This document shows, piece after piece, positions 6,075-48,727 of a DNA stretch of 64,000 bases; the stretch's first letter is position 1; each line of letters starts with the position of its first letter. Source of the DNA: Candidatus Daviesbacteria bacterium. Its GTDB lineage: Bacteria; Patescibacteriota; Microgenomatia; Daviesbacterales; UBA10151. The notes beneath the pieces are model-generated. The model saw nothing but the letters and a program-made list of their open reading frames with translations, made no database searches and was not told the DNA's origin. The DNA is taken from NCBI GenBank assembly GCA_028715175.1, contig JAQUSJ010000001.1, positions 610,386 to 674,385 of the forward strand, read 5' to 3'. Made by a program: the position numbers and the translations under genes.

Positions 6075-6114
6075 TTTGACTCATCACTAGAAACTCTTAT
6101 ACTCTTATCCTAAA

Positions 6115-6819
6115 ATGAAATTTTCTATCATAACCCTTTTCCCTGAAGTCTTTGAACCCATCCTAAATTCATCAATCCTTAAACGGGCACAAAAAAAAGG
6201 TTTGGTTGAATTTGAGCTAATTAACCTACGTGATTTTGGAGAAGGTAAACACAAAGTAGTTGATGACCGTCCATATGGTGGGGGAGCAGGGATGATTTTA
6301 CGGGCTGACATTCTGACCAAATCATTAAAATCTATACTTTCCAAACTACCAACTACCAACTATCAACTATCAACTATCCTCACCTCAGCATCAGGATACC
6401 CTTATAAACAGAAGAAAGCTCTGGAATTTTCCAAAATAAATCATCTGATCGTCATATGCGGACATTACGAAGGGGTGGATCAGCGGTTTATTGACAAATA
6501 TGTAGACGTCGAAATTTCTATAGGGGATTATGTTTTGACAGGAGGAGAGATCCCGGCCATGGTCATTATTGATTCCATCACCAGGCTGATTCCCGGCGTC
6601 CTGGAAAAACCCGAAGCTACTGTAAATGAATCTTTTTCAAAGGGACTACTTGAACATCCCCAATATACCAGACCGGAAGAATTTGAAGAATCAAAAGTAC
6701 CAAAAGTATTATTATCCGGAAATCATGCCGAGATAGCCAAATGGAGAGAACAAAAATCTTTGGAAAAAACCCAAAAAATCCGCCCGAACCTGCTCAAAAA
6801 TAATGCAAGAAACATGTAG
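6115..6819 (+). CDS. trmD: tRNA (guanine37-N1)-methyltransferase TrmD
   Basis: SPOUT TrmD motifs are present: ITLFPE, DDRPYGGGAGMIL and GHYEGVDQR. It contains an in-frame 7-nt tandem repeat at 6349-6380. Confidence 0.85.
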   Translation: MKFSIITLFPEVFEPILNSSILKRAQKKGLVEFELINLRDFGEGKHKVVDDRPYGGGAGMILRADILTKSLKSILSKLPTTNYQLSTILTSASGYPYKQKKALEFSKINHLIVICGHYEGVDQRFIDKYVDVEISIGDYVLTGGEIPAMVIIDSITRLIPGVLEKPEATVNESFSKGLLEHPQYTRPEEFEESKVPKVLLSGNHAEIAKWREQKSLEKTQKIRPNLLKNNARNM

Positions 6820-36027: not shown

Positions 36028-38385
36028 TCAGATCTTAAATAATGACCTTAAAGGAGGAAAAACCATTATTAAAACTTGTATGAAAAGAACCATAACGACT
36101 GAGGCAAGCAGCTTTTTATTGGACAAAATCCCGTGATGTCTTCTCATAATAAAAGGCAGCATCATTTGCAGAATAATCATAACGGTAAAGGTGATGGCTC
36201 TGGAAGTTTGAAGTCCCAAACTTTCAAAGGTAAAATAAAAAGCAAAAAAACAAAAAGCAGAAATTGCCACCCCGCCGAAAATAATAAAATGTAGAGAATC
36301 TTTACTAAGTAAACCTAATTTCTTGCGGGGCGGTATTTGCATCAGATGCCTTGAAGCGGTATCAAAACCCAAAGCCAGAGCAGGAGGTCCGTCTGTGACA
36401 AAATTGATCCAGAGAATCTGAATTGGCAGAAGCGGCGACGGCAGACTGAAAATTGCTGCTACTCCTATCAAAAGCATTTCCGACAAATTCCCGGCAAGTA
36501 AAAACTTAATGACTTTTAAGATATTGTTGTAAATTAGTCTTCCTTGCTCAATGGCCACAGTCAGGGTCGCAAAGTTATCATCAAGCAAAATAATATCTGA
36601 GGCTTCTTTTGACACATCAGTGCCGATTTTACCCATGGAAACCCCGACTTCTGCTTGTTTTAAGGCCAACACGTCATTTACCCCGTCACCTGTCACAGCT
36701 ACTACCTCTCCTAAGCTTTGATAAGCTTTAACAATTCTAAGTTTCTCCTGCGGAGTAATCCTGGCAAAAATTTTGACTTTACCGATTCTTTGTAAAAGAT
36801 CTTCTTCGCTTAAGTCATTGAGCTGACTGCCAATCATAATTTCATCACCAAAGGATAATAGTCCAACCTCTTCACCAATGCTTCTAGCTGTCAGCTCATT
36901 ATCGCCGGTCACCATCACTACCTTAATCCCGGCCTGCTTTGTCAGCGCAATAGCTTCTTTTACCTCAGGACGGACTTCATCAGCAATCCCAGCTAACCCT
37001 AAAAACTCTTTATCCTTTGAAAACGCCAACACCCGCAATCCCTTTTTAGCCATTTGCTGATACCTAAATTCCCACTTCTTTTGATCCGCTTCGGACAACT
37101 TAGATTCAAAAAGTAAAACTTCCGGAGCGCCTTTGGTATACTGCGTCTTTTCCTTACCCTCCTCCCATAAAACAGTCATTTTCCGGGTTTCCAAATTAAA
37201 AGGAATTTCTTCGATTAGTTTGCCTTGCAATCTCATCAGATCAATATCCTTACCCTGATCTTTTGCCCAAAGCAGGAGAGCGCCTTCAGTTGTATCGCCA
37301 AAAATATCAAAACTGCCTTCATCTTCTTTTAATATCAAACTGGCGCTATTACAAAATACCGCGCATTTTAGAAAATCTGCTTCTTTAGTATCTTTAATAC
37401 TGACCTCTTTAACCCGCATTTCATTTTTAGTCAAAGTTCCGGTCTTATCCGTACAAATCACTGTGGCAGTACCCAAAGATTCAATCGCAATCATCTTTCT
37501 AACCAAAGCCTTTTTCCGATACATCTTCCGCATACCTAAGGCCAAAATTATAGTTACCACGGCAGGTAAACCTTCCGGCACTACAGCTACCATTAAAACA
37601 ATGCTGAAAAGAAGAGTGGAAGACACATCATAACCCTGCAATATCCTTAAAATAAAAATCAGGGCTGAAACCGCTAAGGCCCCCAACCCCAGAACTTTAC
37701 TAAAGGAGGCCAGAGCTTTTTCAAAAGGAGTTTGTTCGTCTTCAATGCTGCTTAAAGTTTCTGCTAAGGCGCCAAATTTAGTTCTTGCTCCTGTCTGCAA
37801 AATAAGAACCTTGCCTCGGCCAAAGACAACGGTGGTGGCAAAAAAGACTAGGTTTTCCTCCTTTTTCGCAGATTTAGCAACAGGTAAAGATTCACCGGTT
37901 AAGACAGATTCATTGACCTGCAAAGCATAACTCTCTAAAATTTGCCCGTCTGCTGGAATCCTGTCGCCGGATTCTAAAATTACAATATCACCGGGGACAA
38001 TCTCTGATGAGGGGATTTCCGTCTGCTTACCGCCTCTTTCCACCCTGGCATATTCCACCTCCAGTTTCCGCAACTCTTCCAGCTCTTTGGAAGCTTTATA
38101 TTCCTGCCAAAAACCCAAAATTGAATTTAAAACTAAAATCCCGCCGATTAAAAAGCTGTCCAATTTATCCCCGATGACGGCCGAAAGAATTGTGGCTCCC
38201 AAAAGCAGGTAGGCAAAGGGGGTTTTCATCTGCCGCAGGAAAACCTCCGCAGCAGAAGTTGTTTTTCTCTGCGGCAGCTCATTTAAACCATATCTTTTTA
38301 GCTGTTCCCCGGCCTGATGAGAAGTCAATCCAATTTTTTCGGCAGGATACTTCATAATCTTAAGTTTAACAGAAAACATTGACAT
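36028..38385 (-). CDS. Cation-transporting P-type ATPase (Ca2+/Mg2+-type, P2 subfamily)
   Basis: The DKTGTLT phosphorylation motif (ICTDKTGTLTKNEM), TGDGVNDVLALKQAEVGVSMG, the actuator region TGES and about 10 TM segments are present. Confidence 0.85.
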   Translation of the reverse strand: MSMFSVKLKIMKYPAEKIGLTSHQAGEQLKRYGLNELPQRKTTSAAEVFLRQMKTPFAYLLLGATILSAVIGDKLDSFLIGGILVLNSILGFWQEYKASKELEELRKLEVEYARVERGGKQTEIPSSEIVPGDIVILESGDRIPADGQILESYALQVNESVLTGESLPVAKSAKKEENLVFFATTVVFGRGKVLILQTGARTKFGALAETLSSIEDEQTPFEKALASFSKVLGLGALAVSALIFILRILQGYDVSSTLLFSIVLMVAVVPEGLPAVVTIILALGMRKMYRKKALVRKMIAIESLGTATVICTDKTGTLTKNEMRVKEVSIKDTKEADFLKCAVFCNSASLILKEDEGSFDIFGDTTEGALLLWAKDQGKDIDLMRLQGKLIEEIPFNLETRKMTVLWEEGKEKTQYTKGAPEVLLFESKLSEADQKKWEFRYQQMAKKGLRVLAFSKDKEFLGLAGIADEVRPEVKEAIALTKQAGIKVVMVTGDNELTARSIGEEVGLLSFGDEIMIGSQLNDLSEEDLLQRIGKVKIFARITPQEKLRIVKAYQSLGEVVAVTGDGVNDVLALKQAEVGVSMGKIGTDVSKEASDIILLDDNFATLTVAIEQGRLIYNNILKVIKFLLAGNLSEMLLIGVAAIFSLPSPLLPIQILWINFVTDGPPALALGFDTASRHLMQIPPRKKLGLLSKDSLHFIIFGGVAISAFCFFAFYFTFESLGLQTSRAITFTVMIILQMMLPFIMRRHHGILSNKKLLASVVMVLFIQVLIMVFPPLRSLFKI

Positions 38386-38421: not shown

Positions 38422-38787
38422 GTGAGAAATTTGCAAATTCTTATAGCCTTGGTCTTAAATGCGGCAGCATTGCTTTTAACGGCTAATATTGTACCTGGAT
38501 TCCGGGTTGAAAACTTTACTACAGCCATTTTTGCGGCCATAGTTTTGGGGGTGGTTAATACTTTTATTAAGCCAATCCTAAGCTTTCTAAGCGCACCCTT
38601 AACAATTGTTACTTTAGGGTTGTTTGCTTTTGTGGTCAATGCAGTGGTCTTATTCATAGTGGCAGCAGTGGTGCCGGGAGTAAAGATTGAAGGATGGCTT
38701 CCAGCCATATTGGCAGCAATTGTTTTATCAATTGTCGCAACAATCTTAAATGCGGTATTGAAAGATTTAGGGAAACTAACAAAGTGA
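38422..38787 (+). CDS. 4-TM membrane protein, phage-holin-family-like (DUF360/YvlD-type)
   Basis: It has a GTG start with an upstream RBS (AAGAGGGGG). Four hydrophobic helices show the internal repeat VPGFRVENF / VPGVKIEGW, which is characteristic of this family. Confidence 0.5.
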   Translation: MRNLQILIALVLNAAALLLTANIVPGFRVENFTTAIFAAIVLGVVNTFIKPILSFLSAPLTIVTLGLFAFVVNAVVLFIVAAVVPGVKIEGWLPAILAAIVLSIVATILNAVLKDLGKLTK

Positions 38788-39669
38788 TTACAATTTACCG
38801 GAGCAGAGGCGGTAAATTTGAGTAGTTGAGATATTGGAATGTCCAAGCGTTTTCTGGACTGACCGGATGTCTACTCCGTTAATTAATAAATCTGTGGCAA
38901 AGGAATGACGCAGTATTTGTGGTGTGGCTTTGATGGCAATTCTCAGCTTTTTTGCATATTTTTCTACAATCCGTTCAATGGAACGGGAAGTTAACCTCAT
39001 GGCTTCTCCTTCGTTAGTGGGATCAATTTTACCCTGAAAACGGATAAAAAGAGGTTTAAATTTGTCTTGACGGATTGCTAAGTATTTTCCTAAAAACTCA
39101 CAAGCACCGTCAGATAAAAATACCCCCCGCTCTTTTCCTCCTTTACCAACTATACTAAACTCACGTCCGTCCAGGTTGATGGTATCACGGTTTAATCCGA
39201 CCAGCTCAGATACCAGCAGACCTGTAGAAAACAATGTCTCCAGGATTGCCCGATCCCGTAGTCCGTCTTTTTTACTTGTATCCGGAGCTTTAAGGAGCAA
39301 TCTAAGTTGAGTCTCATCCAACACTTTAAGAGGAAGCCTGGAATTATTCTTTCTCAATTCAACTTTTTCGGCCGAAAGCGTTTGCACACCAGTTCCTGCC
39401 AGATACCGAAGAAATGTTCTAAGAGCTATCATAAAATAATTTTGAGTCACCCTTTTTAAAGATTCTTTGGTTTTCGGATCCGTCCATCTGGAAAGGTATA
39501 GTCTGTATTTTCCGACTAAGCTTAAGGTTATATCCTGCGGGTTTATATCACCACTAAATTCCAAAAATCTCTTTAAGCAGTGATCGTAATTTCTGATTGT
39601 TAACCGGGAGGCATTTCGCTCAAGTTCCAGATATTCCAGAAAATCTGTGATAAGAGAGGATAAGGACAT
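38788..39669 (-). CDS. Tyrosine site-specific recombinase (XerC/XerD-like)
   Basis: It has an N-terminal SAM-like core-binding domain and the C-terminal catalytic motifs R...HxxR...Y (LRHSFATDLL...GHSNISTTQIY). Confidence 0.75.
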   Translation of the reverse strand: MSLSSLITDFLEYLELERNASRLTIRNYDHCLKRFLEFSGDINPQDITLSLVGKYRLYLSRWTDPKTKESLKRVTQNYFMIALRTFLRYLAGTGVQTLSAEKVELRKNNSRLPLKVLDETQLRLLLKAPDTSKKDGLRDRAILETLFSTGLLVSELVGLNRDTINLDGREFSIVGKGGKERGVFLSDGACEFLGKYLAIRQDKFKPLFIRFQGKIDPTNEGEAMRLTSRSIERIVEKYAKKLRIAIKATPQILRHSFATDLLINGVDIRSVQKTLGHSNISTTQIYRLCSGKL

Positions 39670-39683
39670 ATTTGAATTTTGAA

Positions 39684-40430
39684 CTAAAGAAGCGCTAATC
39701 CCAAAATTCCCAGCACAGTTAAAACCCCTCCAAAAATTGCTACGGTAAAAGTAAATTGCTCTGAACCGGCCGGCGGCAAAACTGTCTTCTTAACCGGCAG
39801 GGGCGCAATGGTTGCCGACGGAGTAGACGTTGTTGAACTTCCTATTGGTTTATAAACAACTGCAATCGGGGATGCCAATGGGGTAGTAGTAGTGCCGCAA
39901 GTTCCGGTTCCAACCGTATAATTTCCGTTTACGACCGAGTTTAATATATCTACTATTGTTGCCCGTTGTACAACATTGGAATCCGTAGTTTTAGCTTTAT
40001 TATTAGGATCAAAGTCAAAAGTAATTTGAGTTGCTCCGGTAGGCGCCGAATCTTTCACTGTAAAATTCAAGGTAGCCAGAGTACCTTTGCCGGTAAAAGG
40101 CGTCGCCACAGAAGCAAGTCCTGAAATGGTGATTTTGCCTGCGGCCTCATCTACATTATTACCGGGAAAGTCAGGATACACGGCTGTATTTGAAGTAATC
40201 GAACTGGTAGTAATGCTGAGCCTGGAGGAATCATAAAATAAAATTGCATCAGTACCATCTGTTTGGGCTCCGCCTGTATCAAGATTAATATTTAGAGAGA
40301 AAGGGCAGTTTCTGTTAAATGTGCCTGTGGCCGGATCCAAGGATAAAGTGGCCACCTGGGCAAAAACTCCGGTCGGAGAAACTAAAAACCATAAAACAAA
40401 CGTAAAAAAAGAAATCGCATATTTTATCAT
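39684..40430 (-). CDS. Secreted surface protein with a cohesin-like domain and a C-terminal LPPAG plus hydrophobic anchor
   Basis: It has a signal peptide and ATLSLDP...FSLNINLDTGG...AILFYDSSRLSIT (a cohesin-like beta-sandwich pattern). The C-terminus is VLPPAGSEQFTFTVAIFGGVLTVLGILGLALL. Confidence 0.45.
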   Translation of the reverse strand: MIKYAISFFTFVLWFLVSPTGVFAQVATLSLDPATGTFNRNCPFSLNINLDTGGAQTDGTDAILFYDSSRLSITTSSITSNTAVYPDFPGNNVDEAAGKITISGLASVATPFTGKGTLATLNFTVKDSAPTGATQITFDFDPNNKAKTTDSNVVQRATIVDILNSVVNGNYTVGTGTCGTTTTPLASPIAVVYKPIGSSTTSTPSATIAPLPVKKTVLPPAGSEQFTFTVAIFGGVLTVLGILGLALL

Positions 40431-41059
40431 TGCACAACAAGCTCCAAATTTACAACCTGTTCGACTATATCTTTAGCTGTACTAGCCTCTACCAGGTTGG
40501 AATCTATAGTAGACCCTTTGTCCTTAAAATCAACAGTCAATGATGTCTTCCCTGAGGCAATTTTAGTTTTAAAATTTATAGTTGCAAATTGTCCTGTACC
40601 TTTAAACACGTTCTGCAAACTGTTAATACCTGAAATAGCAATCAAACCTTTACTCGCATCCACAATCATAGTCGGATATTCCTCAAAAAGACGGCCTTTG
40701 ATTAGTCCTCCGGAAGTAGCCTCAAGAACTTTAGGATCATAATGGATTACGACATCAACTCCGTTTATTGCTTGTGAACCAGTCTCGATATTCACGGCAA
40801 CAGGCACAATTTCATTTATCCGGTATGTGTTTTTGGGAACATTTAATGAAATTGTCCCTACTTTTGATTGTAGTGGAACCTTACCTGCAATCGGGGGAGC
40901 AGGCAATGTTAATACCCGAATTGCATATATTAATTCCGCCAAAAGTATCAATCCTAAAACCAAAAAAATAAATTTGGGAAGAGAAACAAATTTTTTTATT
41001 TGCATTACAGGCTTATTCTCCTGATTATTTTGTTGTACATTTAAATCATCCATATACAT
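40427..41059 (-). CDS. Membrane-anchored protein with a cohesin-like domain
   Basis: It has an N-terminal TM anchor and VDVVIHYDPKVLEA, which resembles the cohesin YDPxVL strand. Confidence 0.45.
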   Translation of the reverse strand: MYMDDLNVQQNNQENKPVMQIKKFVSLPKFIFLVLGLILLAELIYAIRVLTLPAPPIAGKVPLQSKVGTISLNVPKNTYRINEIVPVAVNIETGSQAINGVDVVIHYDPKVLEATSGGLIKGRLFEEYPTMIVDASKGLIAISGINSLQNVFKGTGQFATINFKTKIASGKTSLTVDFKDKGSTIDSNLVEASTAKDIVEQVVNLELVVQ

Positions 41060-41093
41060 ATATTTTGTACTACAATTACCGAACTTTTACCAG

Positions 41094-43415
41094 TCACAGC
41101 GGTGAAAGGCTTGAGCTAGAAGTTGCAGTTGGGTTTGGACTTGGACTTGTGACAAAAGACGAAATTGTTGGTTCCGGATCATCCACTTGACCGAAATCAT
41201 ATCTCATGCAAGCCCAATCAATAGAATTAACCCTACAATCTCTATTGAAATCTCCGGGTCTATCACAGCTGTCTTCAGCAATGATAAACTCGCGGATTAA
41301 CTGCGCATGATCAAAAGGATTTATTGCACCGTCACGGACGTCTAATGGGAAAATGTCGCCAATAGGCAAAATGAAATTGGGGATGCTGACTATGCCGTCG
41401 CCGGCTGTAAATCGGGCAATCCTCCGCAACGATTTCGGCGCCTTAAGTGACACAATATATCTCTTACCGACTTCCAGTTTTTGAGTCAATCCCTGAACAA
41501 CTCCATCTTTATCGATCTTTACTGTTTGCCGTGTCTTTTTTCCTGTTTCATCCACCAGAACCATATCTACATTCTCTGTATCATGAGAAGCCGGCGCCCT
41601 GCAAAAAACCTTGGCTCCTAAGGCAAGCTGTGAAATAGCACCGCACTGTCCGGTTCCTGTTTGTTCGTCTGTATTTGTGAAAGTTATTGGCAAAACTTGT
41701 CCTGTTTGCGCATTCTGCAAAACCGCCTGAATGCTATTATCGCTCCATGACTTTATTTCCAAATTAGTATCACCGCTTTTTACTGTACCCTTTTCTGATC
41801 CAAAATTTTGCCCCGTTAAATTCAGGATGGTCTTGCTGTCTTCAAAACTCAAAGAACAACTGGTCATGGTCGGACCAGACCCAAGCAGTTCAATTTGGGC
41901 TTGACACTTCGGACAATCGGCTGCAGTGGTTACCTTATTGGTAGAATCCATAAATTGCACAAAGATAAACTTCTGCCCTGGTGTTACATCCTTGAAAGTA
42001 TAATCAAGCGGGTTTGATGCAACAGCAATTGTATAATCCCGCCATGGAGCGCTAGCTAAATCAGTCGGATTTTCCGCAATCCTAAATTGCTTAGTATAAG
42101 CAGGAGCAGGAGCTGAACTGGAAGCAGGAGAAGAGGCGGGAGAGGAAGAAGGCGAAGTAGCAGACGTTCCTCCACAGCTTGAAGCGCACTGACCCGTTTT
42201 CACACCTTGACAGCCGCTTGGATCAATCTGGCACCAATTTTTAACAACATTTGCCTGGTTACCACAGCTTGTATCCCATCCATTGCTTTCATAAAAAGGT
42301 AAAATATCTGTTCTTTTTAGCAAAACACATTCACTGCATGCATCCAGCCCTTGGCATCCGGCAGGCCCGCCACTACCTTCTCCCGAAGCACAACTTGCTT
42401 CTGATCCCGTTCCAATGTATCTAAGTTGCATACATTTATTGTTGTTGGTAGAAATACCGTCTGTATCTTTGAATTCATAACACCAAGCACTGGTGTCAGG
42501 ATTGATAAAATTTGGCTGGTCTGTATTCGGCGGGCAATCTTTGTTGGGATCAGCAAAGTTTTTTGTAGGACATGAAGAATTACAATCTGCAACATATTGA
42601 TGTAGTCTGTCGCATACACCTGGACTATTAATCCCCAGTTCGCTTGGTTTAAAAGTTGCTTTGCACACTATAGTACCCTTACTTGTGCCACCGCTTGTAC
42701 CACTACCACTACAAGGCTCCGCACAACCCTTGTCGTTATCACAGTAGTTTTGACCACCGAAGTTGCAGGCATAGTGTTCATATGCAGTACATGTTTTCCC
42801 ATCTTTAGTGCAGGTTCCTGCTGCACTGCCAGGATTACATGCATGGTAACCCGCAGCTATACAGTAGTTATCTGTTCCACCACCTCCACCGCTACTGCCA
42901 GTACATGGTGAATCACAGTTTGAATGATCGCAATAATTCTGCCCCCCAAAGTTACATTGGTAGGCTTCATATGCTGTACATGATTGTCCGTCTTTTGAAC
43001 AGCTGCCCGCAACACTACCTACATTACATGCATGGAAACCAGCAGCAATACAGTAATTATCTTCAGCATAAGCGGTTTTCACCAAGCCTTTGGGCAAAAA
43101 ACTTAACGGTGAATCTTTTGACTTCACAGTTTGAATAGAAGATTGTGCCGGGCCCAGCGGGGAAGTAAGCTGAACTTGAATCTGGGGCTTGGTGGCAACC
43201 CAGGTACCATCACTCTTTTTACTAACATTTGAACCTGTAAATACAATTGGATCTACAGCAGCGCGGGATTTAATAATTTGCTGCGTCCTGACAAGATTAA
43301 CACCCAATGGAATACCCAGAATAAGTATACCTAAAACAAGTAGACTAACAAGATTTTTTTTATTACGAAACAAGTTTCCTGTTTCGTTTTTGAAGTAATC
43401 TAAAATTGCTCCCAT
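41094..43415 (-). CDS. Large cysteine-rich surface protein with tandem Cys-rich modules, a shared ~60-aa Cys domain and a dockerin-like C-terminal segment
   Basis: It has an N-terminal TM/signal anchor. A duplicated ~55-aa module reads NYCIAAG(F/Y)HACN...C(S/T)KDG(Q/K)(S/T)CTAYE.Y.CNFGGQNYCD. The domain ...CSECVLL...FYESNGWDTSCGNQANVVKNWCQ...C...KTGQCASSCGG is also found twice in the 58465..61677 protein. The C-terminus DVRDGAINPFDHAQLIREF...DFNRDCRVNSIDWACMRYDF resembles dockerin Ca-binding repeats. Confidence 0.5.
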   Translation of the reverse strand: MGAILDYFKNETGNLFRNKKNLVSLLVLGILILGIPLGVNLVRTQQIIKSRAAVDPIVFTGSNVSKKSDGTWVATKPQIQVQLTSPLGPAQSSIQTVKSKDSPLSFLPKGLVKTAYAEDNYCIAAGFHACNVGSVAGSCSKDGQSCTAYEAYQCNFGGQNYCDHSNCDSPCTGSSGGGGGTDNYCIAAGYHACNPGSAAGTCTKDGKTCTAYEHYACNFGGQNYCDNDKGCAEPCSGSGTSGGTSKGTIVCKATFKPSELGINSPGVCDRLHQYVADCNSSCPTKNFADPNKDCPPNTDQPNFINPDTSAWCYEFKDTDGISTNNNKCMQLRYIGTGSEASCASGEGSGGPAGCQGLDACSECVLLKRTDILPFYESNGWDTSCGNQANVVKNWCQIDPSGCQGVKTGQCASSCGGTSATSPSSSPASSPASSSAPAPAYTKQFRIAENPTDLASAPWRDYTIAVASNPLDYTFKDVTPGQKFIFVQFMDSTNKVTTAADCPKCQAQIELLGSGPTMTSCSLSFEDSKTILNLTGQNFGSEKGTVKSGDTNLEIKSWSDNSIQAVLQNAQTGQVLPITFTNTDEQTGTGQCGAISQLALGAKVFCRAPASHDTENVDMVLVDETGKKTRQTVKIDKDGVVQGLTQKLEVGKRYIVSLKAPKSLRRIARFTAGDGIVSIPNFILPIGDIFPLDVRDGAINPFDHAQLIREFIIAEDSCDRPGDFNRDCRVNSIDWACMRYDFGQVDDPEPTISSFVTSPSPNPTATSSSSLSPL

Positions 43416-43576
43416 TTGTAGAATGTAAACCTTACTTTAATAGTGAACCAAATCATATAACTTTGTCAACTACGTCATGTTAACTGAACGTAGTCAACCC
43501 CTTGCAAACTGTTAAGGTGAATCTAAAAAGATACATATAAACGAAATCTCAAATGATACAAATTAATGTGTTATCA

Positions 43577-43644
43577 TGTCATTCTGGCTTGTCCAGAATC
43601 GCTTTTAATAGATTCTGGAGTCGTTTCACTCCCCAGAATGACAG
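43577..43644. repeat. Palindromic element bounded by TGTCATTCTGG ... CCAGAATGACA
   Basis: The sequence is tgtcattctggcttgtccagaatcgc...ttctggagtcgtttcactccccagaatgaca. It lies between the Cys-rich protein gene and the tyrosine recombinase gene. Confidence 0.7.
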
Positions 43645-43693
43645 TCTTCCTAAAACTATATCAATTGAGATTTCCGATTACAAAGCAGGCTTT

Positions 43694-44704
43694 CTATTTT
43701 TCAGGTCTTTCAGCCAGGGGATGATACCGTCTATGTGAATCTTCGGCAAACCGGTCAGAAGCATTAACATATCTGGTAGTAGTATTTAATGACTCGTGTC
43801 CCAAAAGCATCTGGATGGCCACGGGAGAAGCGCCTTCTTCCGCCAAATATGTAGCAAAACCATGACGCAAAGAATGGGCGCTTGTTGGAACAATAATACC
43901 AAGTTTTTCGCGATAACTTTTGATTTTAGCTTGTAAATAATTCGGAGATATTCGACAATCTCTTTGGCCCATTCTTTTGCCTTTCTGGGGAACAAAAAGC
44001 GCCGGAAGAGCATCTTTCCTAAGTTTTAAATAGTTATCTATATAAAATTTGGCCCGTTCGGTCAAATACACAAACCGCTCTTTTTTACCTTTACCGATAA
44101 TAAAAATTCTACCGGATGAATCAATATCGCGACGGTTCAAAGACAAAAGCTCCGATATTCTCATCCCTGTTGCAAACAGTACTTCTAACATGGCTCGGTT
44201 TCGTGTAGCTACTACAGAATTTTTTTCGAAAGTTGAAGGTGACTCAATTAATGATATTAATTCGTTGAGCTCCGCTACTTTATAATGCTTTTTCTCTTTA
44301 CGAACCATCCTTACGCTTTCTGGAACAACAGGTATTTTATAGTCCTGAAAAATTAGAAATTTTAAATAACTCCTAAAAGATGACAGTATCCTATTGATCG
44401 AGCCGCTCTGCAATTTTAAAGAAGTTTCCTGTTCCGAAATAGCGGTTTTACGGTCTGTCGATAAAAGGTATGCTTTATAGCGTTCCACATCTGCTTTAGT
44501 TATTTGTTCAAATTCTTTTTGTATTTCATGTTCCAAAAAATAGGTGAGTGTAAGCAAATCACGTTCATAGTTATACATTGTCTCTTGAGAGTAGTTATCG
44601 GTTTGCAGATGTAATAAAAACTCATCAAATAGCGGCAAGGAAATTTTCTTTTTTGTTTCAATAGACGAGCTTAACATAATGAGTGTTTGAATGATTATAC
44701 TCAT
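43694..44704 (-). CDS. Tyrosine recombinase / phage-integrase family protein
   Basis: The C-terminal catalytic region AHSLRHGFATYL...LLGHESLNTTTRY (HxxR...Y) and a long N-terminal SAM-like domain are present. It is flanked by TGTCAT-bounded palindromic elements. Confidence 0.75.
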   Translation of the reverse strand: MSIIIQTLIMLSSSIETKKKISLPLFDEFLLHLQTDNYSQETMYNYERDLLTLTYFLEHEIQKEFEQITKADVERYKAYLLSTDRKTAISEQETSLKLQSGSINRILSSFRSYLKFLIFQDYKIPVVPESVRMVRKEKKHYKVAELNELISLIESPSTFEKNSVVATRNRAMLEVLFATGMRISELLSLNRRDIDSSGRIFIIGKGKKERFVYLTERAKFYIDNYLKLRKDALPALFVPQKGKRMGQRDCRISPNYLQAKIKSYREKLGIIVPTSAHSLRHGFATYLAEEGASPVAIQMLLGHESLNTTTRYVNASDRFAEDSHRRYHPLAERPEK

Positions 44705-44771
44705 AATACCAAGGCTAAATAGGTCTTGTCAAGCATTAAAGTAGCATTAATTCAGTTTTCTCCAGCGAATT

Positions 44772-44879
44772 TGTCATTCTGATCCGGCTTTGCCGGAGAA
44801 GAATATAACTGAAAGTATAGATCCTTGCGTCACCGCTAAAGCTATGGCGGCACGCGGTCGCTAGTCGCTCAGGATGACA
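44772..44879. repeat. GC-rich element bounded by TGTCATTCTGA ... TCAGGATGACA, with internal hairpins
   Basis: The sequence is tgtcattctgatccggctttgccggag...cgctcaggatgaca. Its local GC content is much higher than that of the surrounding sequence. Confidence 0.6.
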
Positions 44880-45599
44880 GTATGTGCTGGATTCACGCAA
44901 ATGAGGCTAGCCAGGCACGAGGCCCGTAAATGGCCCAAAAACGGCTTTTCAGGGGATAAGACGTAGGATAGATCATCAAGGGTTTAGGTTGTTAGAAAAA
45001 CCTAAACAAATTATTGGTAATCTTTATTTATAGACGAAAAATTAACAAGAAATTTGGACGGGAATTACCATAATTTAAGTACATGAAATTTTTCCTTATT
45101 TTTGTACTCTTGCCGATTAAATGCCGTACCTGTGGGTAATTAAACCACTTCTCCGTTTTTTACTGTTTCACATATTGTACGACATCAAAATATAGGGAAG
45201 TTTGTATAACCTTTCTCGCAAGGAGGAGTATACAGAAACAGTATCTAAATAAACACACCTGTTTCTGCTAGAAACATCTAATTAAGGTTGCATAAAGACA
45301 GAGAGAAGCACCTCTCTTCTCCAGGGAGCTTCGTTAGGTTTCGGGAAACCTACGTCCGGTATTATTTAGCACTTATCCACAAAGTATGCCATTGTTAGGC
45401 TCAATAGATCCTATAGCAAAACGTCTTCGTGCTTAGTCGCTATATCAAACCATATCAACTATTCTTTTCACGAAATTTACTCTAATTTTTCACACTTCGA
45501 CTCTCCGGCTACGCCGGATCGCTCAGTGTAAACTCTCTCACTTCCCTACTTTAGCTTATTCTGTCAATATAATTTTGAACTTTTAACTTTGAATTATAT

Positions 45600-46382
45600 T
45601 TATCCGCTCCATGATGTTGTAAAAAAACTAACCAAAAGTACAATTGCCCCTATAATCAAGTACTCCCGCATCATTCTCCTAGTCATCTTACCCCTTAAGT
45701 ACTGAGTAGTTAAACCTAAAAGAATATACATGGCGGAAGATAAAGACAGCGACCAAATTGTTGTCGGAGACGGCCAAAATGAGAAACTTAAGGCCAACTC
45801 TCCCAGGATTAAACTTAAGACAAAACTCTGTATAATAATTGCTACCGAAACCGTATCCTCCATTTTAAAAGTCCAAAGCACTTGTAGAATTAATAAAAAA
45901 CTTACTGCCATGACCGCTACCCCATTCCACAGAAAAAATAAATTAAAAGCGGAAATTACATGGTATATAAAAAAAGCTGAAAGAAGCGTAAAAAGGAAAC
46001 TCGCCGTTGATGCTGCCCTGTATAAAGGAATCGTCCGCAAAGATGCCACATTAAATACATTCTGCGCCAAAAGCAACAGATAGAAAGTCAGGCCAAATAT
46101 AAAAGCTACCGGCAGCCTCGTTAGCCAGCGCACAGGTAAAAGAAAATAAAAGCTTGCGACAGCCACTGTAAAAAAGGTCGGTAAAATCAAAAGCATAAAT
46201 GCTTTGGTTACATTTAAACCCTCCCAAAGAGACCAGAAGGAAAGAATATATGCGAAAACCGCAAGCCCTCCCAAAAATCTAAACCTCAGATTAAAATCAA
46301 CCAATTGCGTTGAAAGTAATCCTATAGTTAATAAAAATGAGCTGATAACTATTTTTTGCCGTTTGTTTAGGTTTAGTTTCAT
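45600..46382 (-). CDS. Polytopic membrane protein, hypothetical
   Basis: The 260-aa protein has about 7 hydrophobic helices. No family was recognised. Confidence 0.5.
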   Translation of the reverse strand: MKLNLNKRQKIVISSFLLTIGLLSTQLVDFNLRFRFLGGLAVFAYILSFWSLWEGLNVTKAFMLLILPTFFTVAVASFYFLLPVRWLTRLPVAFIFGLTFYLLLLAQNVFNVASLRTIPLYRAASTASFLFTLLSAFFIYHVISAFNLFFLWNGVAVMAVSFLLILQVLWTFKMEDTVSVAIIIQSFVLSLILGELALSFSFWPSPTTIWSLSLSSAMYILLGLTTQYLRGKMTRRMMREYLIIGAIVLLVSFFTTSWSG

Positions 46383-46468
46383 ATTCCCCTCTCTATTGGC
46401 TATCCGGATTCTCCTATCGAGATCCTTCGTCGCTGTTTCGCCCCTCAGGATGGTTGCTCGTTACCTCG

Positions 46469-47002
46469 TTACTTCGCAACCAATTTCAAAACATGACAGA
46501 TAGCAATTGCCAGCGCATCTGTGGCATCATCCAGGTGTCCACCTTTCCAATTTACTTTAAGCTTATTCCGTTTTCTGCCGGAGGTTCCCAGGAACTTCCT
46601 TACCCCATCATGGACTTGATTTTTATCAGCTCTGCCTGACCCGGCAACCAAAAGTTTCACCTGCAAACCCGTATAATCTTGAAACGGAATGTTATGCTGA
46701 GAAGCTGTTAACATAATCACTCCCCTCGCCTGTCCTACCATAATGGCAGTTCTGGTATTGGCCCCGAAAAATAACATCTCGCAAATCATCTGGTCCGGCT
46801 GATATTTTTTTATAACCGAGGTTAGTTCGCTGTGTATCATATGCAAGCGATCCTGCATTAGTTTATCTTTGGGCGTGCTGATATTTCCATAAGCTATCAA
46901 TTCTATATTGTAGTTAAATTCCCGACTTAATATGTCATCCGGTATTTTTATGACTCCATAACCAGTGGTAGCTGTTCCAGGATCAATTCCTAAAATAATC
47001 AT
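46469..47002 (-). CDS. ruvC: Crossover junction endodeoxyribonuclease RuvC
   Basis: The N-terminus MIILGIDPGTATTGYGVI, the size and the acidic catalytic residues fit RuvC. Confidence 0.85.
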   Translation of the reverse strand: MIILGIDPGTATTGYGVIKIPDDILSREFNYNIELIAYGNISTPKDKLMQDRLHMIHSELTSVIKKYQPDQMICEMLFFGANTRTAIMVGQARGVIMLTASQHNIPFQDYTGLQVKLLVAGSGRADKNQVHDGVRKFLGTSGRKRNKLKVNWKGGHLDDATDALAIAICHVLKLVAK

Positions 47003-47003
47003 A

Positions 47004-47090
47004 GTCGTCAGTATCGCTTCGCTCTCAGTCTTCAGCTTTCAGACTTGTTTTGTCTGACGACTGATGACTGATAGCTGATAGCTATTCTTG
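47004..47090. repeat. NNNTCAG-heptamer palindromic element filling the yebC-ruvC intergenic region
   Basis: The sequence is gtcgtcagtatcgcttcgctctcagtcttcagctttcagac-ttgtttt-gtctgacgactgatgactgatagctgatagct, an inverted repeat around a ttgtttt loop. Confidence 0.85.
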
Positions 47091-47840
47091 TTCTATCTCA
47101 AAATTAGCATACACCTTTTGTACATCATCTAAGTCCTCCAGCTTCCCTATAAAATCCAAAACTTTTTTGGCTGTTTCCGGATCATTTATTGAAACTAAAG
47201 TATTTGGTTTAAAGACTAGCTCCTGTGACTCTACTGTGTATCCTGCCTGAGTAATTTTATTACCCATAGTATTTAATTCTGGGCTCTCTGTATATACTAA
47301 ATACATTTGTCCGCCAGCTGGCGGATTATCTTCAATATAGTCTTCAACGTCTTTCGCGCCAAGATCTATCAGTTCCAGCATTTCTTCCTCTGCGTTACCA
47401 CCTTTACTCCTTACTCTAATTTCTCCCACCCTGCCAAACATATATGCTACACTTCCCTGTCCGGCCAAACTTCCCCCACTTCTTTCAAAAATATTTTTAA
47501 TTTCCTGTAAAGTTCGCAGTTTATTATCAGTTACCCCTTCTATCAAAAATGCCACTTTACCAGGCCCAAAACCTTCATAAACCACTTCTTCCAGAGTTTG
47601 ACCGGGTAATTTGCCTAATCCCCTGTCAATGGCCCGCTGCACATTTTCCTTGGGCATATTTACGCTTTTTGCCTCCTCCATTACCACTCTCAATCTTGGA
47701 TTGGATTCCGGATCACCGGATCCTCCCATTTTCACAGCAATGGTAATGGCATTTGCAAGCTTGGTAAAGGTTTGTCCTCGTTTGATATCTGCTACCCCTT
47801 TTTGCCGCTTGATTGTACTCCACTTGCTATGTCCTGACAT
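47082..47840 (-). CDS. yebC: YebC/PmpR-family transcriptional regulator
   Basis: The N-terminus MSGHSKWSTIKRQKG is a highly conserved YebC signature. Confidence 0.85.
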   Translation of the reverse strand: MSGHSKWSTIKRQKGVADIKRGQTFTKLANAITIAVKMGGSGDPESNPRLRVVMEEAKSVNMPKENVQRAIDRGLGKLPGQTLEEVVYEGFGPGKVAFLIEGVTDNKLRTLQEIKNIFERSGGSLAGQGSVAYMFGRVGEIRVRSKGGNAEEEMLELIDLGAKDVEDYIEDNPPAGGQMYLVYTESPELNTMGNKITQAGYTVESQELVFKPNTLVSINDPETAKKVLDFIGKLEDLDDVQKVYANFEIEQE

Positions 47841-48354: not shown

Positions 48355-48727
48355 CTGTCATTCCTGCGAATGCAGGAATCTAATTAACAGAATAATTTAA
48401 TGTCATAATAGGACCATGTATTATGTTTATATTTTAACTACTGGCAGAAATGGTACTTTGTATGTTGGAGTCACTGATAATTTAGTCACAAGAGTTTATC
48501 AACATAAAAATAATCTAATAAAAGGGTTTACTCAAAAATATAATATTCATAATCTCGTCTACTTTGAACAACACCAGGATATTAATGAGGCTATATTAAG
48601 AGAAAAACAAATCAAGAAATGGAAAAGGTTTTGGAAGATAAAGTTGATTAATAAGATGAACCCGAAGTGGAAGGATTTATTTAACTCTATTGCCTAATTG
48701 GATCCCCGCCTGCGCGGGGATGACAGA
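48355..48727 (+). mobile_element. Mini-element bounded by imperfect inverted repeats (ctgtcattcctgcgaatgcaggaatc ... ggatccccgcctgcgcggggatgacag) and carrying a GIY-YIG nuclease gene
   Basis: There are terminal hairpins on both sides. The ends, TGTCAT(T/C)CC, are shared with the elements at 43577 and 44772. Confidence 0.5.
48416..48697 (+). CDS. GIY-YIG nuclease family protein (YhbQ/UPF0213-like)
   Basis: It has the N-terminal YYVYIL...GxLYVGVTDNLVTRVYQH (the GIY...YIG motif) and a size of 93 aa. Confidence 0.7.
   Translation: MYYVYILTTGRNGTLYVGVTDNLVTRVYQHKNNLIKGFTQKYNIHNLVYFEQHQDINEAILREKQIKKWKRFWKIKLINKMNPKWKDLFNSIA

Follow-up and report, generated by a model that had tools for sequence, protein, structure and literature searches.

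The question raised by this locus is why two genes for tyrosine recombinases bracket a small set of surface-protein genes in the chromosome of a Candidatus Daviesbacteria bacterium. The locus lies in a stretch of 64,000 nucleotides (contig JAQUSJ010000001.1, positions 610,386 to 674,385), which is called the window in what follows and to which coordinates refer. A first-pass annotation had read the two recombinases, two cohesin-like proteins, a Cys-rich dockerin-like protein and nearby palindromes with TGTCAT ends as either a mobilisable island or a recombinase-controlled surface switch, with a pair of housekeeping Xer recombinases as the alternative. Our comparison of the window with related loci indicated that the segment is most likely the replication terminus of this tiny groundwater bacterium. 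It is probably a dif/Xer region for the resolution of chromosome dimers, with two alternative single-recombinase modules, and not an island or a switch.

The conserved locus and its dif-like site

On the minus strand of the window, the list of open reading frames (ORFs) and Pfam gave the order YebC, RuvC, DUF5656, a gap, one recombinase (Rec2), a protein of 773 amino acids (aa), two cohesin-like proteins (Coh2 and Coh1), the other recombinase (Rec1) and a P-type ATPase. All genes of the first-pass annotation were present in the order it had given, and the two outer ones encode tyrosine recombinases, both with Pfam matches to Phage_integrase and to a SAM-like N-domain. With RuvC as the query, 35 related loci were recovered and placed in Candidatus Daviesbacteria (Microgenomates, Candidate Phyla Radiation (CPR)) by title or by shared synteny; about 12 of them bear the titles 'uncultured Gammaproteobacteria', 'Patescibacteria group' or 'bacterium'. 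In tblastn comparisons of these 35 loci a single order and orientation was found, YebC-RuvC-DUF5656-gap-(Rec2)-variable region-C-terminal half of the large protein-Coh2-Coh1-Rec1-ATPase, and RuvC identity spanned 63-99% across the syntenic loci. The slot after the gap holds Rec2 in 18 loci, a different Xer paralogue in two and no second recombinase in 11, and the distance from Rec2 to Coh2 is 2.3-6.3 kb among species. The locus is a conserved chromosomal position with a variable middle, and not a recent insertion.

The 900-bp gap (44705-45599) is free of ORFs, as had been described, with no ORF of at least 60 aa, no tRNA and no Rfam match within it, but it is not an empty spacer. About 600 nt of it (44900-45500) could be aligned, with 67-85% identity and no conserved ORFs, in every one of the 33 related loci whose sequence extends beyond DUF5656, and by this alignment the gap is a conserved element rather than a spacer. 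At the position of 45158-45185, relatives that lack Rec2 at the locus (Rec2-less relatives) carry a full 28-bp palindrome of 11-6-11 geometry, ATGTCGCACAA-TGTATC-TTATGCGACGT, which has the organization of a dif-type core (two inverted arms of about 11 bp around a spacer of 6-8 bp). This palindrome matches the Escherichia coli dif sequence at 18 of 28 positions and at 16 of the 18 central ones, and the symmetry of its arms is 9/11. In genomes with a second recombinase the left arm, GATGTCGYACAATAT, is kept, and the window itself holds such a remnant (site 1; Table 1), with no further dif-like match within the 64 kb. The 22-nt core of the site was present in more than 120 metagenome contigs and one viral contig, with a single copy in each; some two thirds of these contigs have unrelated flanking genes. 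In the contig classed as viral (L036, IMGVR_UViG_3300035698_008332), which is identical to metagenome locus L077, the exact core lies at 6110-6131; this contig may represent an element that integrates at dif with the help of the host Xer, or else CPR DNA that was misclassified.

A change from high to low GC skew is the signature of a terminus in either orientation. In all 34 metagenome loci with at least 2.5 kb on each side, the skew left of the site was greater than that right of it; its sign flipped at the site from + to - in 17 of these loci and in the opposite direction in none. The same pattern, high on the left and low on the right, was found in 23 of 23 Daviesbacteria loci. When gene strand was included as a covariate, the best breakpoint in a scan of the window fell at 44.5-46.0 kb, and the residual sum of squares dropped from 386 to 307. 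Rec2-like genes were located at terminus-type skew drops in five of six other CPR loci. Coincidence of dif sites with the shift point of GC skew has been reported (Kono et al. 2011, PMC3025954). The blocks that flank the Rec2-like gene in L163 and L165 (Parcubacteria-type loci), namely MurD-FtsW-MurG-GluRS-M23 peptidase and L27-L9-CtpB-CysS-DnaB-RecR, are swapped and inverted between the two loci, a symmetric inversion with the recombinase as its pivot.

The form of site 1 and the presence of a second recombinase are perfectly associated. No second recombinase follows the gap in any of the 11 genome loci with the full palindrome, and all 21 loci with the left arm only have one, including the two with the different paralogue; L026, with a contig that stops at the Rec2-type palindrome described below, is counted among the 21. 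The two states are interleaved on a tree of YebC, RuvC and DUF5656, which indicates at least six switches. The 20 nt just downstream of site 1 (GGAGAAGTGG or GGAGGAGACC) are incompletely linked to the form of the site, which argues against pure hitch-hiking.

Two recombinases and their candidate sites

The best NCBIfam matches of both recombinases were XerC/XerD at 186-201 bits, below the equivalog cut-offs of 330-335; XerA gave 170-190 bits against a cut-off of 220 and XerS 93-102 bits against 267. Both proteins scored far above integron integrases or invertases, and their identity to each other is 31%. By these profiles the Xer-like character of Rec1 and Rec2 extends to rank order only, and neither is an equivalog of a named Xer. 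The housekeeping alternative of the first-pass annotation was right in kind, with regard to the Xer family, the dif-like site and the skew shift, but the profile cut-offs for XerC and XerD were not reached.

The catalytic set of Rec2 is complete (R, K, HxxR, H and Y, in ATGMRISEL, GKGKKER, LRHGFAT and LGHESLNTTTRY) and is kept in all orthologues. Its start is probably the ATG at 44677, nine codons inside the longest ORF, from which a gene call on an identical Logan contig predicts 327 aa. The family has 4631 homologues. Identity is 62-66% in Parcubacteria, Woykebacteria and Gottesmanbacteria, against 52-61% for certain Daviesbacteria orthologues located at this same locus, and the higher values in the other CPR lineages suggest lateral exchange of the module. 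The synteny DUF5656-gap-Rec2 is also found in Woykebacteria and other lineages. In two Daviesbacteria loci the position of Rec2 is occupied by a third type of Xer-like gene with a GKGGHPR motif (L004:4166-5029 and L033:12405-13247), which is 44-45% identical to Rec1 and 29-30% identical to Rec2; L004 retains a Rec2 fragment of 100 aa. The slot after the gap has thus been refilled on more than one occasion.

A palindrome of 10-6-10 geometry between the promoter and the start codon of Rec2 is the candidate site of this recombinase (dif2; Table 1). The promoter elements are kept upstream of Rec2 orthologues as TTGACA-N17/18-TATTAT. The palindrome was found 5' of the gene in 17 of 19 Daviesbacteria loci examined (none in L025 and L030). 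Outside Daviesbacteria it precedes Rec2-like genes of Woykebacteria and two other lineages, with three CPR loci besides that of Woykebacteria; L157 and L160 are among the loci that have it. Among 160 fetched loci (1.45 Mb) it occurred in 20, always adjoining Rec2 and never together with the full dif palindrome. Variant A, ATGAGTATAA-TCAACC-TTATACTCAT, is perfect in L020 (11/11 symmetry, compared with 7/11 for the window copy), and variant B, TTCTTGTAA-TCAGCA-TTACACGAA, is found in a more distant Rec2 subgroup. Both arms co-vary with two Rec2 subfamilies, as the pairs GAGTATAA/TTATACTC and TCTTGTAA/TTACACGA.

Rec1 of the window is 100% identical to a Daviesbacteria protein, and its orthologues, at 57-92% identity with the window excluded, are located directly after Coh1 in every locus that reaches that far. 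The window protein does not have the complete catalytic set of a tyrosine recombinase: its catalytic Arg-I, residue 152, is Leu (STGLLVSEL; intact form STGLRVSEL). Arg-I is also Leu in L014 and is Gln in L028, the nearest relative of the window; in L020 the gene is split, in L025 it is without the Tyr region and in L004 it carries an internal deletion. Rec1 is damaged in six of the eight assessable genomes with a second recombinase (L011 and L016 being intact) and in none of the 10 Rec2-less genomes. Half-sites of the form GTCGYACAAT are found beside the promoter of the Rec1-ending operon (site 2) or directly 5' of Rec1 (L014, L027 and L164), which fits binding of that arm by Rec1; site 2 is lost in the window and in L028. 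In L164, from another Microgenomates lineage, Rec2 is followed by 2.4 kb of unrelated small ORFs, two copies of GTCGTACAAT and then a Rec1 orthologue of 58% identity.

We propose that two modules are involved. Module 1 would comprise Rec1 and the canonical-looking 28-bp dif palindrome in the gap downstream of DUF5656, with GTCGYACAA half-sites adjoining the promoter of the Rec1-ending operon, and module 2 would comprise Rec2 and its own 10-6-10 palindrome between promoter and start codon, as in the xerS-difSL arrangement. In the window module 2 appears intact and module 1 appears to be decaying (right arm lost, promoter half-site gone, Arg-I changed to Leu), and on this ground Rec2 is most likely the lone resolver of chromosome dimers, acting on 44679-44704. 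Rec1 would then be no more than a relic that binds DNA, and together with the half-site at 45158-45185 it would be what remains of the older module. A wider scheme, which we regard as doubtful, is that two interchangeable, laterally exchanged single-recombinase Xer/dif modules compete for the terminus across the CPR and that the losing Rec1, rather than just disappearing, repeatedly becomes a catalytically dead DNA-binding regulator of the surface operon through GTCGYACAA half-sites; its basis is the independent substitution of the catalytic Arg in the lineage of the window and L028 and in L014.

The surface operon, the TGTCAT elements and the gap

The coordinates of the features discussed are collected in Table 1.

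Table 1. Features of the window that bear on the recombinase locus, in order of position.
Feature	Position	Strand	Basis
P-type ATPase	36028-38385	-	ORF and Pfam
Rec1, Xer-family tyrosine recombinase, 293 aa, final gene of the cassette operon	38788-39669	-	Pfam and NCBIfam
Coh1, cohesin-like surface protein, 248 aa	39684-40430	-	Pfam Cohesin
Coh2, cohesin-like protein with N-terminal membrane anchor, 210 aa	40427-41059	-	Pfam Cohesin
Large secreted or anchored protein, 773 aa	41094-43415	-	TIG domain and sub-threshold Dockerin_1
Dockerin-like segment of the large protein, aa 684-742, GDIFPLDVRDGAINPFD ... GDFNRDCRVNSIDWACM	41190-41366	-	sub-threshold Pfam and weak phmmer matches
Hypervariable Cys-rich module of the large protein, aa 103-245	42681-43109	-	alignment with L028
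Element A, 67 nt, MITE-like, four ATTCTGG/CCAGAAT arms between TGTC and GACA	43577-43643		DNA fold z = -6.0
Rec2, Xer-family tyrosine recombinase with intact active site	43694-44677 (longest ORF to 44704, 336 aa)	-	profiles and active site
Candidate Rec2 site dif2, 10-6-10 palindrome ATGAGTATAA-TCATTC-AAACACTCAT	44679-44704	minus-strand reading	between Rec2 promoter and start codon
Sigma-70-type Rec2 promoter, TTGACA-18-TATTAT, TG-extended	44703-44732	-	11/12 matches in promoter scan
Element B, 108 nt, MITE-like	44772-44879		termini of element A with 2 mismatches; weak fold z = -1.9
Conserved non-coding 3' block of the gap, motif AAGCCGTTTTTGGGGCC	44895-45157	-	33/33 related loci with or without Rec2
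Site 1, dif-like remnant, ATGTCGTACAA-TATGTG-AAACAGTAAAA	45158-45185	-	left arm alone conserved; symmetry 3/11
Conserved non-coding 5' block of the gap	45200-45500	-	alignment of related gaps
Housekeeping anchors DUF5656 membrane protein, RuvC and YebC	45600-47840	-	Pfam and synteny
GIY-YIG-carrying TGTCAT copy	48356-48725		TGTCATYC...GRATGACA ends common to A and B

The two cohesin-like calls of the first-pass annotation were confirmed, as both proteins pass the gathering threshold of Pfam Cohesin (PF00963; 30.7 bits for Coh1 and 37.3 for Coh2 against 24.1). The large protein is dockerin-like below the threshold, with 16.8 bits on Dockerin_1 (PF00404) against a cut-off of 22.9 and a first repeat that is degenerate by inspection. 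The top PDB sequence matches of Coh2 were cellulosomal scaffoldin cohesins, weak at E = 0.013, and Coh1 gave no PDB sequence match. In Coh1 a signal peptide and a cohesin domain are accompanied by a Thr/Ser/Pro linker, an LPPAG motif and a hydrophobic C-terminal tail; its end (39684-39800) reads VLPPAGSEQ followed by the tail of 23 residues, which is conserved in orthologues, and by inspection this C-terminus appears to be a sortase-type sorting signal with an LPxAG motif. The large protein combines an N-terminal transmembrane segment with Cys-rich repeats and a Ser/Pro linker. Its C-terminal half, which contains a TIG domain and a dockerin-like double F-hand, is the conserved one, and conservation across species is confined to the C-terminal 330 aa or so. 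Weak phmmer matches (E = 0.04-0.9) to the type I dockerins 5nrm, 5nrk, 2vn5, 2mte and 1daq were found over DFNRDCRVNSIDWACMR, and the weak PDB match to type I dockerins covers GDFNRDCRVNSIDWACMR of this protein.

In L028, residues 103-245 of the large protein are replaced by an unrelated Cys-rich module, whereas identity in the remainder is 95% or more. The window was found to contain no silent copy of the variable surface module, and relatives of each module occur in other species; as far as these alignments indicate, the swap is between-strain variation by ordinary recombination and not programmed switching. In Woykebacteria, DUF5656-gap-Rec2 is followed by glycogen-metabolism genes with no cohesins. 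The comparison suggests that the bracket of two Xer genes is older than the cassette, and its presence without cohesins in L164, together with the cohesin-free Woykebacteria arrangement, points to the cohesin-dockerin genes as a Daviesbacteria-specific filling of a terminus-proximal slot. The surface operon would thus be a passenger specific to Daviesbacteria, presumably co-transcribed with Rec1, in which, as we propose, the membrane-anchored and the seemingly sortase-anchored cohesins keep the large protein at the cell surface by its dockerin-like C-terminus, and the N-terminal module of that protein would be exchanged between strains.

The TGTCAT elements A and B share their termini with the GIY-YIG-carrying element, as had been noticed earlier. 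Their description as palindromes holds for element A, a strong nested palindrome, and less well for element B, which has the same termini but a weak fold. Their architecture is TGTC-hairpin-(cargo)-hairpin-GACA, and the window contains three copies, one with the GIY-YIG gene; TGTCATTCTG, with at most one mismatch, occurs 12 times in the window compared with 4.1 expected. In L028 the orthologue of element A has kept its arms and diverged in its loop, element B has kept the Rec2-proximal hairpin alone, with compensatory stem changes, and an extra 68-nt TGTCAT copy is present in the gap, with none at that place in the window. The elements are absent from orthologous positions in other species. 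Eighteen copies were found in 1.37 Mb of CPR loci, at least three with GIY-YIG ORFs, and the gene-carrying copies L092:398-776 and L106:2571-2994 lie some 300 nt beyond the dif-like site, where the window has element B. By these comparisons the elements are insertions resembling MITEs (miniature transposable elements with inverted repeats), and neither att sites nor tyrosine-recombinase sites; those in the window would be non-autonomous copies of the GIY-YIG-carrying element that landed in intergenic spaces around Rec2. The earlier suggestion that the gap and the palindromes mean something more was borne out for the gap, with its dif-like site and the Xer-type palindrome 5' of Rec2, but not for the unrelated, MITE-like TGTCAT palindromes.

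In CPR contigs the hairpin-ended family, TGTCATYCTGAG...CTCAGRATGACA, is either empty (60-180 nt) or carries a gene for a GIY-YIG nuclease of about 90 aa, and further copies were seen in L054, L085, L111, L125, L129, L134 and L148. Like MITEs and repetitive extragenic palindromes with their associated tyrosine transposases (REP/RAYT-type), these are short hairpin or terminal-inverted-repeat elements in intergenic DNA, empty or gene-carrying, and insertion-polymorphic in close relatives. Unlike them, the cargo is the GIY-YIG nuclease and not a DDE or Y1 transposase, and we know of no transposition mechanism for such a cargo. No description of the TGTCAT family was found in a literature search, and it may represent a MITE system, so far undescribed, that is associated with a nuclease.

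Within the 3' block of the gap lies a hairpin, TTTAGG..CCTAAA, whose G-T variants are compatible with the minus orientation. A frequent form, TTTGG/CTAAA, pairs as G-U in the minus orientation only, which hints at transcription of the gap in the direction of the genes, and a variable stretch of 17 nt lies between conserved GATGA and CCCC. A small ORF in this block was excluded, as 1-nt indels break the frame in L002 and L026 and the substitutions are without codon periodicity. RNAalifold (3' block on both strands, and 5' block) and a covariation scan gave short, weakly supported helices only, with which a structured RNA was rejected. No relevant known RNA was found by Rfam at gathering and permissive thresholds (window, seven related loci and eight short contigs) or by ARAGORN.

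In the 5' block there are two copies of CGTGAAAA 22 bp apart, two copies of TGATATAG 11 bp apart, an inverted CTATAGG, CTTCCCTATAT and a perfect DnaA-box sequence, TGTGGATAA; the portion from TGATATAG to CTATAGG is kept as far as Woykebacteria (L157:9375-9430). These repeats might be accessory recombination sequences or binding sites for a terminus protein. A replication origin, which the DnaA-box-like TGTGGATAA had brought into consideration, was excluded, as the skew changes in the direction of a terminus. A hairpin insert of 24 nt, GGACGTAGGTTTCCCGAAACCTAA, at 45334-45357 is identical in the window, L012 and L024 and absent from the other 29 aligned gaps, and it looks like a separate tiny mobile insertion. 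At the other end of the cassette, an ORF of 118-121 aa is located between the ATPase and Rec1 (38422-38787, plus strand), with Phage_holin_4_2 (PF04020) in the precomputed gene call of an identical contig. Small membrane ORFs are also found 3' of Rec1 in L025, where they are equivalent, and in L004 and L020, where they are different.

Competing explanations and related systems

Several points weigh against our preferred reading of a terminus with two single-recombinase modules. The skew shift in the window is modest and confounded by gene strand, and in the Daviesbacteria loci the sign of the skew never changes. Rec1 of the window is a full-length, conserved ORF and may still be functional. 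The left arm of site 1 is strongly conserved in all Rec2-containing genomes, for which simple decay is no explanation, and the site and Rec2 are about 450 bp apart, so that linkage during lateral replacement of the locus could yield part of their association. 'Rec2-less' refers to the locus and not to the whole genome, and the single-copy status of the sites applies within the fetched loci. The palindrome 5' of Rec2 is imperfect in the window and overlaps the region of the transcription start, and it could be an autoregulatory operator or a hairpin of the 5' untranslated region only; it is weak or absent 5' of Rec2-like genes in L158 and L163 (some Parcubacteria). An alternative that we consider unlikely is a classical pair of the XerC/XerD type, in which the conserved left arm of 45158-45185 would be the target of Rec1 and its A-rich right arm that of Rec2, with the Rec2 palindrome as an operator for autoregulation. 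In its favour, XerC/XerD are the top-ranking profiles for both proteins, more than one lineage has the two genes close together, and GAAAYAGNAAAAAA is common to the right arms of close relatives. The site is also palindromic with one recombinase and asymmetric with two, in line with the rule known from single-Xer and XerCD systems, and in XerCD systems one arm is typically poorly conserved (PMC3025954). Against it, the right arm is almost unconserved in the Rec2 genomes despite a highly conserved Rec2. The inactivation or fragmentation of Rec1 in six of eight genomes is hard to square with an obligate partner, and the Rec2 palindrome has the Xer-type 10-6-10 geometry, with arms that co-vary with the Rec2 subfamily.

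It is hardly credible that the flanking recombinases drive a mobilisable island or an invertible or excisable surface locus with the TGTCAT palindromes as sites. Such a locus would be in keeping with the variable length of the interval between Rec2 and the cohesins, with the swap of the N-terminal module of the large protein between near-identical genomes, with the presence or absence of Rec2 among relatives, and with the known inversion of surface genes by Xer-like recombinases in Mycoplasma and Ureaplasma. The mobilisable module proposed in the first-pass annotation was contradicted by the conservation of gene order across Daviesbacteria species: the cassette is in the same place in all Daviesbacteria loci, no locus of sufficient extent lacks the cohesins or Rec1, and the differences at the orthologous site are limited to Rec2 and to how long the variable region is. 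Nor did the invertible or excisable switch find support, as one orientation is seen in every locus and no silent cassettes occur in the window. The att-like direct repeats anticipated at 38.8 kb and 44.9-45.6 kb did not exceed chance, and neither did flanking inverted repeats; a 24-nt inverted repeat (38387-38410/43437-43460) that encloses Rec1 through the large protein has 83% complementarity, no better than chance pairs, and was discarded. The TGTCAT elements are missing at orthologous positions elsewhere and polymorphic even in comparison with L028, and the recombinases have dif-like sites of their own elsewhere in the locus. Also improbable is the explanation that the palindromes are transcription-factor operators, or hairpins of a small RNA from the gap, with the recombinases as mere neighbours. 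In contigs from outside Daviesbacteria, another 3-11 nt, complementary but not conserved, lengthen the 22-nt core, and the outer stem co-varies; some variation in the stem is from C-G to T-G, a terminator-like hairpin follows the core in some contigs, and GTCGYACAAT half-sites adjoin promoters. Neither an operator nor a small RNA predicts the terminus-type skew drop at the core in 34 of 34 loci. The central match to E. coli dif, the occurrence once per contig and a form that follows recombinase content also argue against them, and Rfam gave no match and the consensus structure is weak. For LexA or another operator no usable motif was found in the literature, and the terminus position argues against it.

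The reading of the segment as a terminus with two single-recombinase modules has its closest published parallel in difSL-xerS, a single-recombinase module that replaces the classical system and whose site was proposed to lie between promoter and gene (PMC1914069). In XerS/difSL of streptococci and lactococci, as in XerH/difH of Helicobacter and Campylobacter, a dedicated lone recombinase is found beside its own atypical dif at the terminus, and Rec2 with the palindrome at 44679-44704 has the same layout, at terminus-type skew drops here and in the five of six other CPR loci. However, Rec2 scores 186 and 175 bits on the XerC and XerD profiles and 93 on XerS, and its site is a near-symmetric 10-6-10 palindrome that coexists with the remains of an older dif/Xer pair, whereas difSL is 31 bp long and asymmetric. 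With the XerC/XerD-dif system of Escherichia coli and Bacillus the locus has in common the Xer family, the 11-6-11 geometry in Rec2-less relatives, the central match and the position at the skew shift. It differs in that the full site is near-symmetric (9/11) with one Xer gene in the fetched Rec2-less loci, that the proteins are far below the equivalog cut-offs, that both xer genes are within 6 kb of the site, and that in the window the site is half lost and one recombinase is without its catalytic Arg. XerA is said to be a single archaeal Xer that acts on a dif-like site; the arrangement of one Xer and a dif-like site is alike, and the window proteins reach 170-190 bits on XerA, below 220, but the host here is a bacterium and the site adjoins the gene.

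For the surface genes, Peer et al. reportedly found in 2009 that cohesin and dockerin modules are widespread outside cellulosome producers, and the locus resembles such non-cellulosomal pairs in having cohesins and a dockerin-like module in one operon with no glycoside hydrolases. It differs from them in that the dockerin is sub-threshold and contains Cys, one cohesin has a sortase-like signal, and the predicted partner is a Cys-rich modular protein. The vpma, vsa and mba loci of Mycoplasma and Ureaplasma are similar in the small genome and in an Xer-like gene beside variable surface-protein genes; in contrast to them, no inverted recombination sites, silent copies or orientation variants were found here among 35 relatives.

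For annotation, the locus is a warning that two integrase-like genes around surface genes are not by themselves evidence of an island. The CPR, whose genomes measure 0.5-1 Mb, makes up a huge and uncultured share of bacterial diversity, and no description of a dif site or an Xer system for it was found in a literature search; the locus offers a testable dif/Xer system for this group. The dif-like sequence ATGTCGCACAATGTATCTTATGCGACGT marks the terminus in many CPR contigs and could be used in the closing and orienting of metagenome-assembled genomes and in estimates of replication rate. In addition, one Xer/dif module has seemingly been caught here in the course of replacing another, with intermediates in related species, whereas the corresponding replacement in streptococci was inferred only after the fact.

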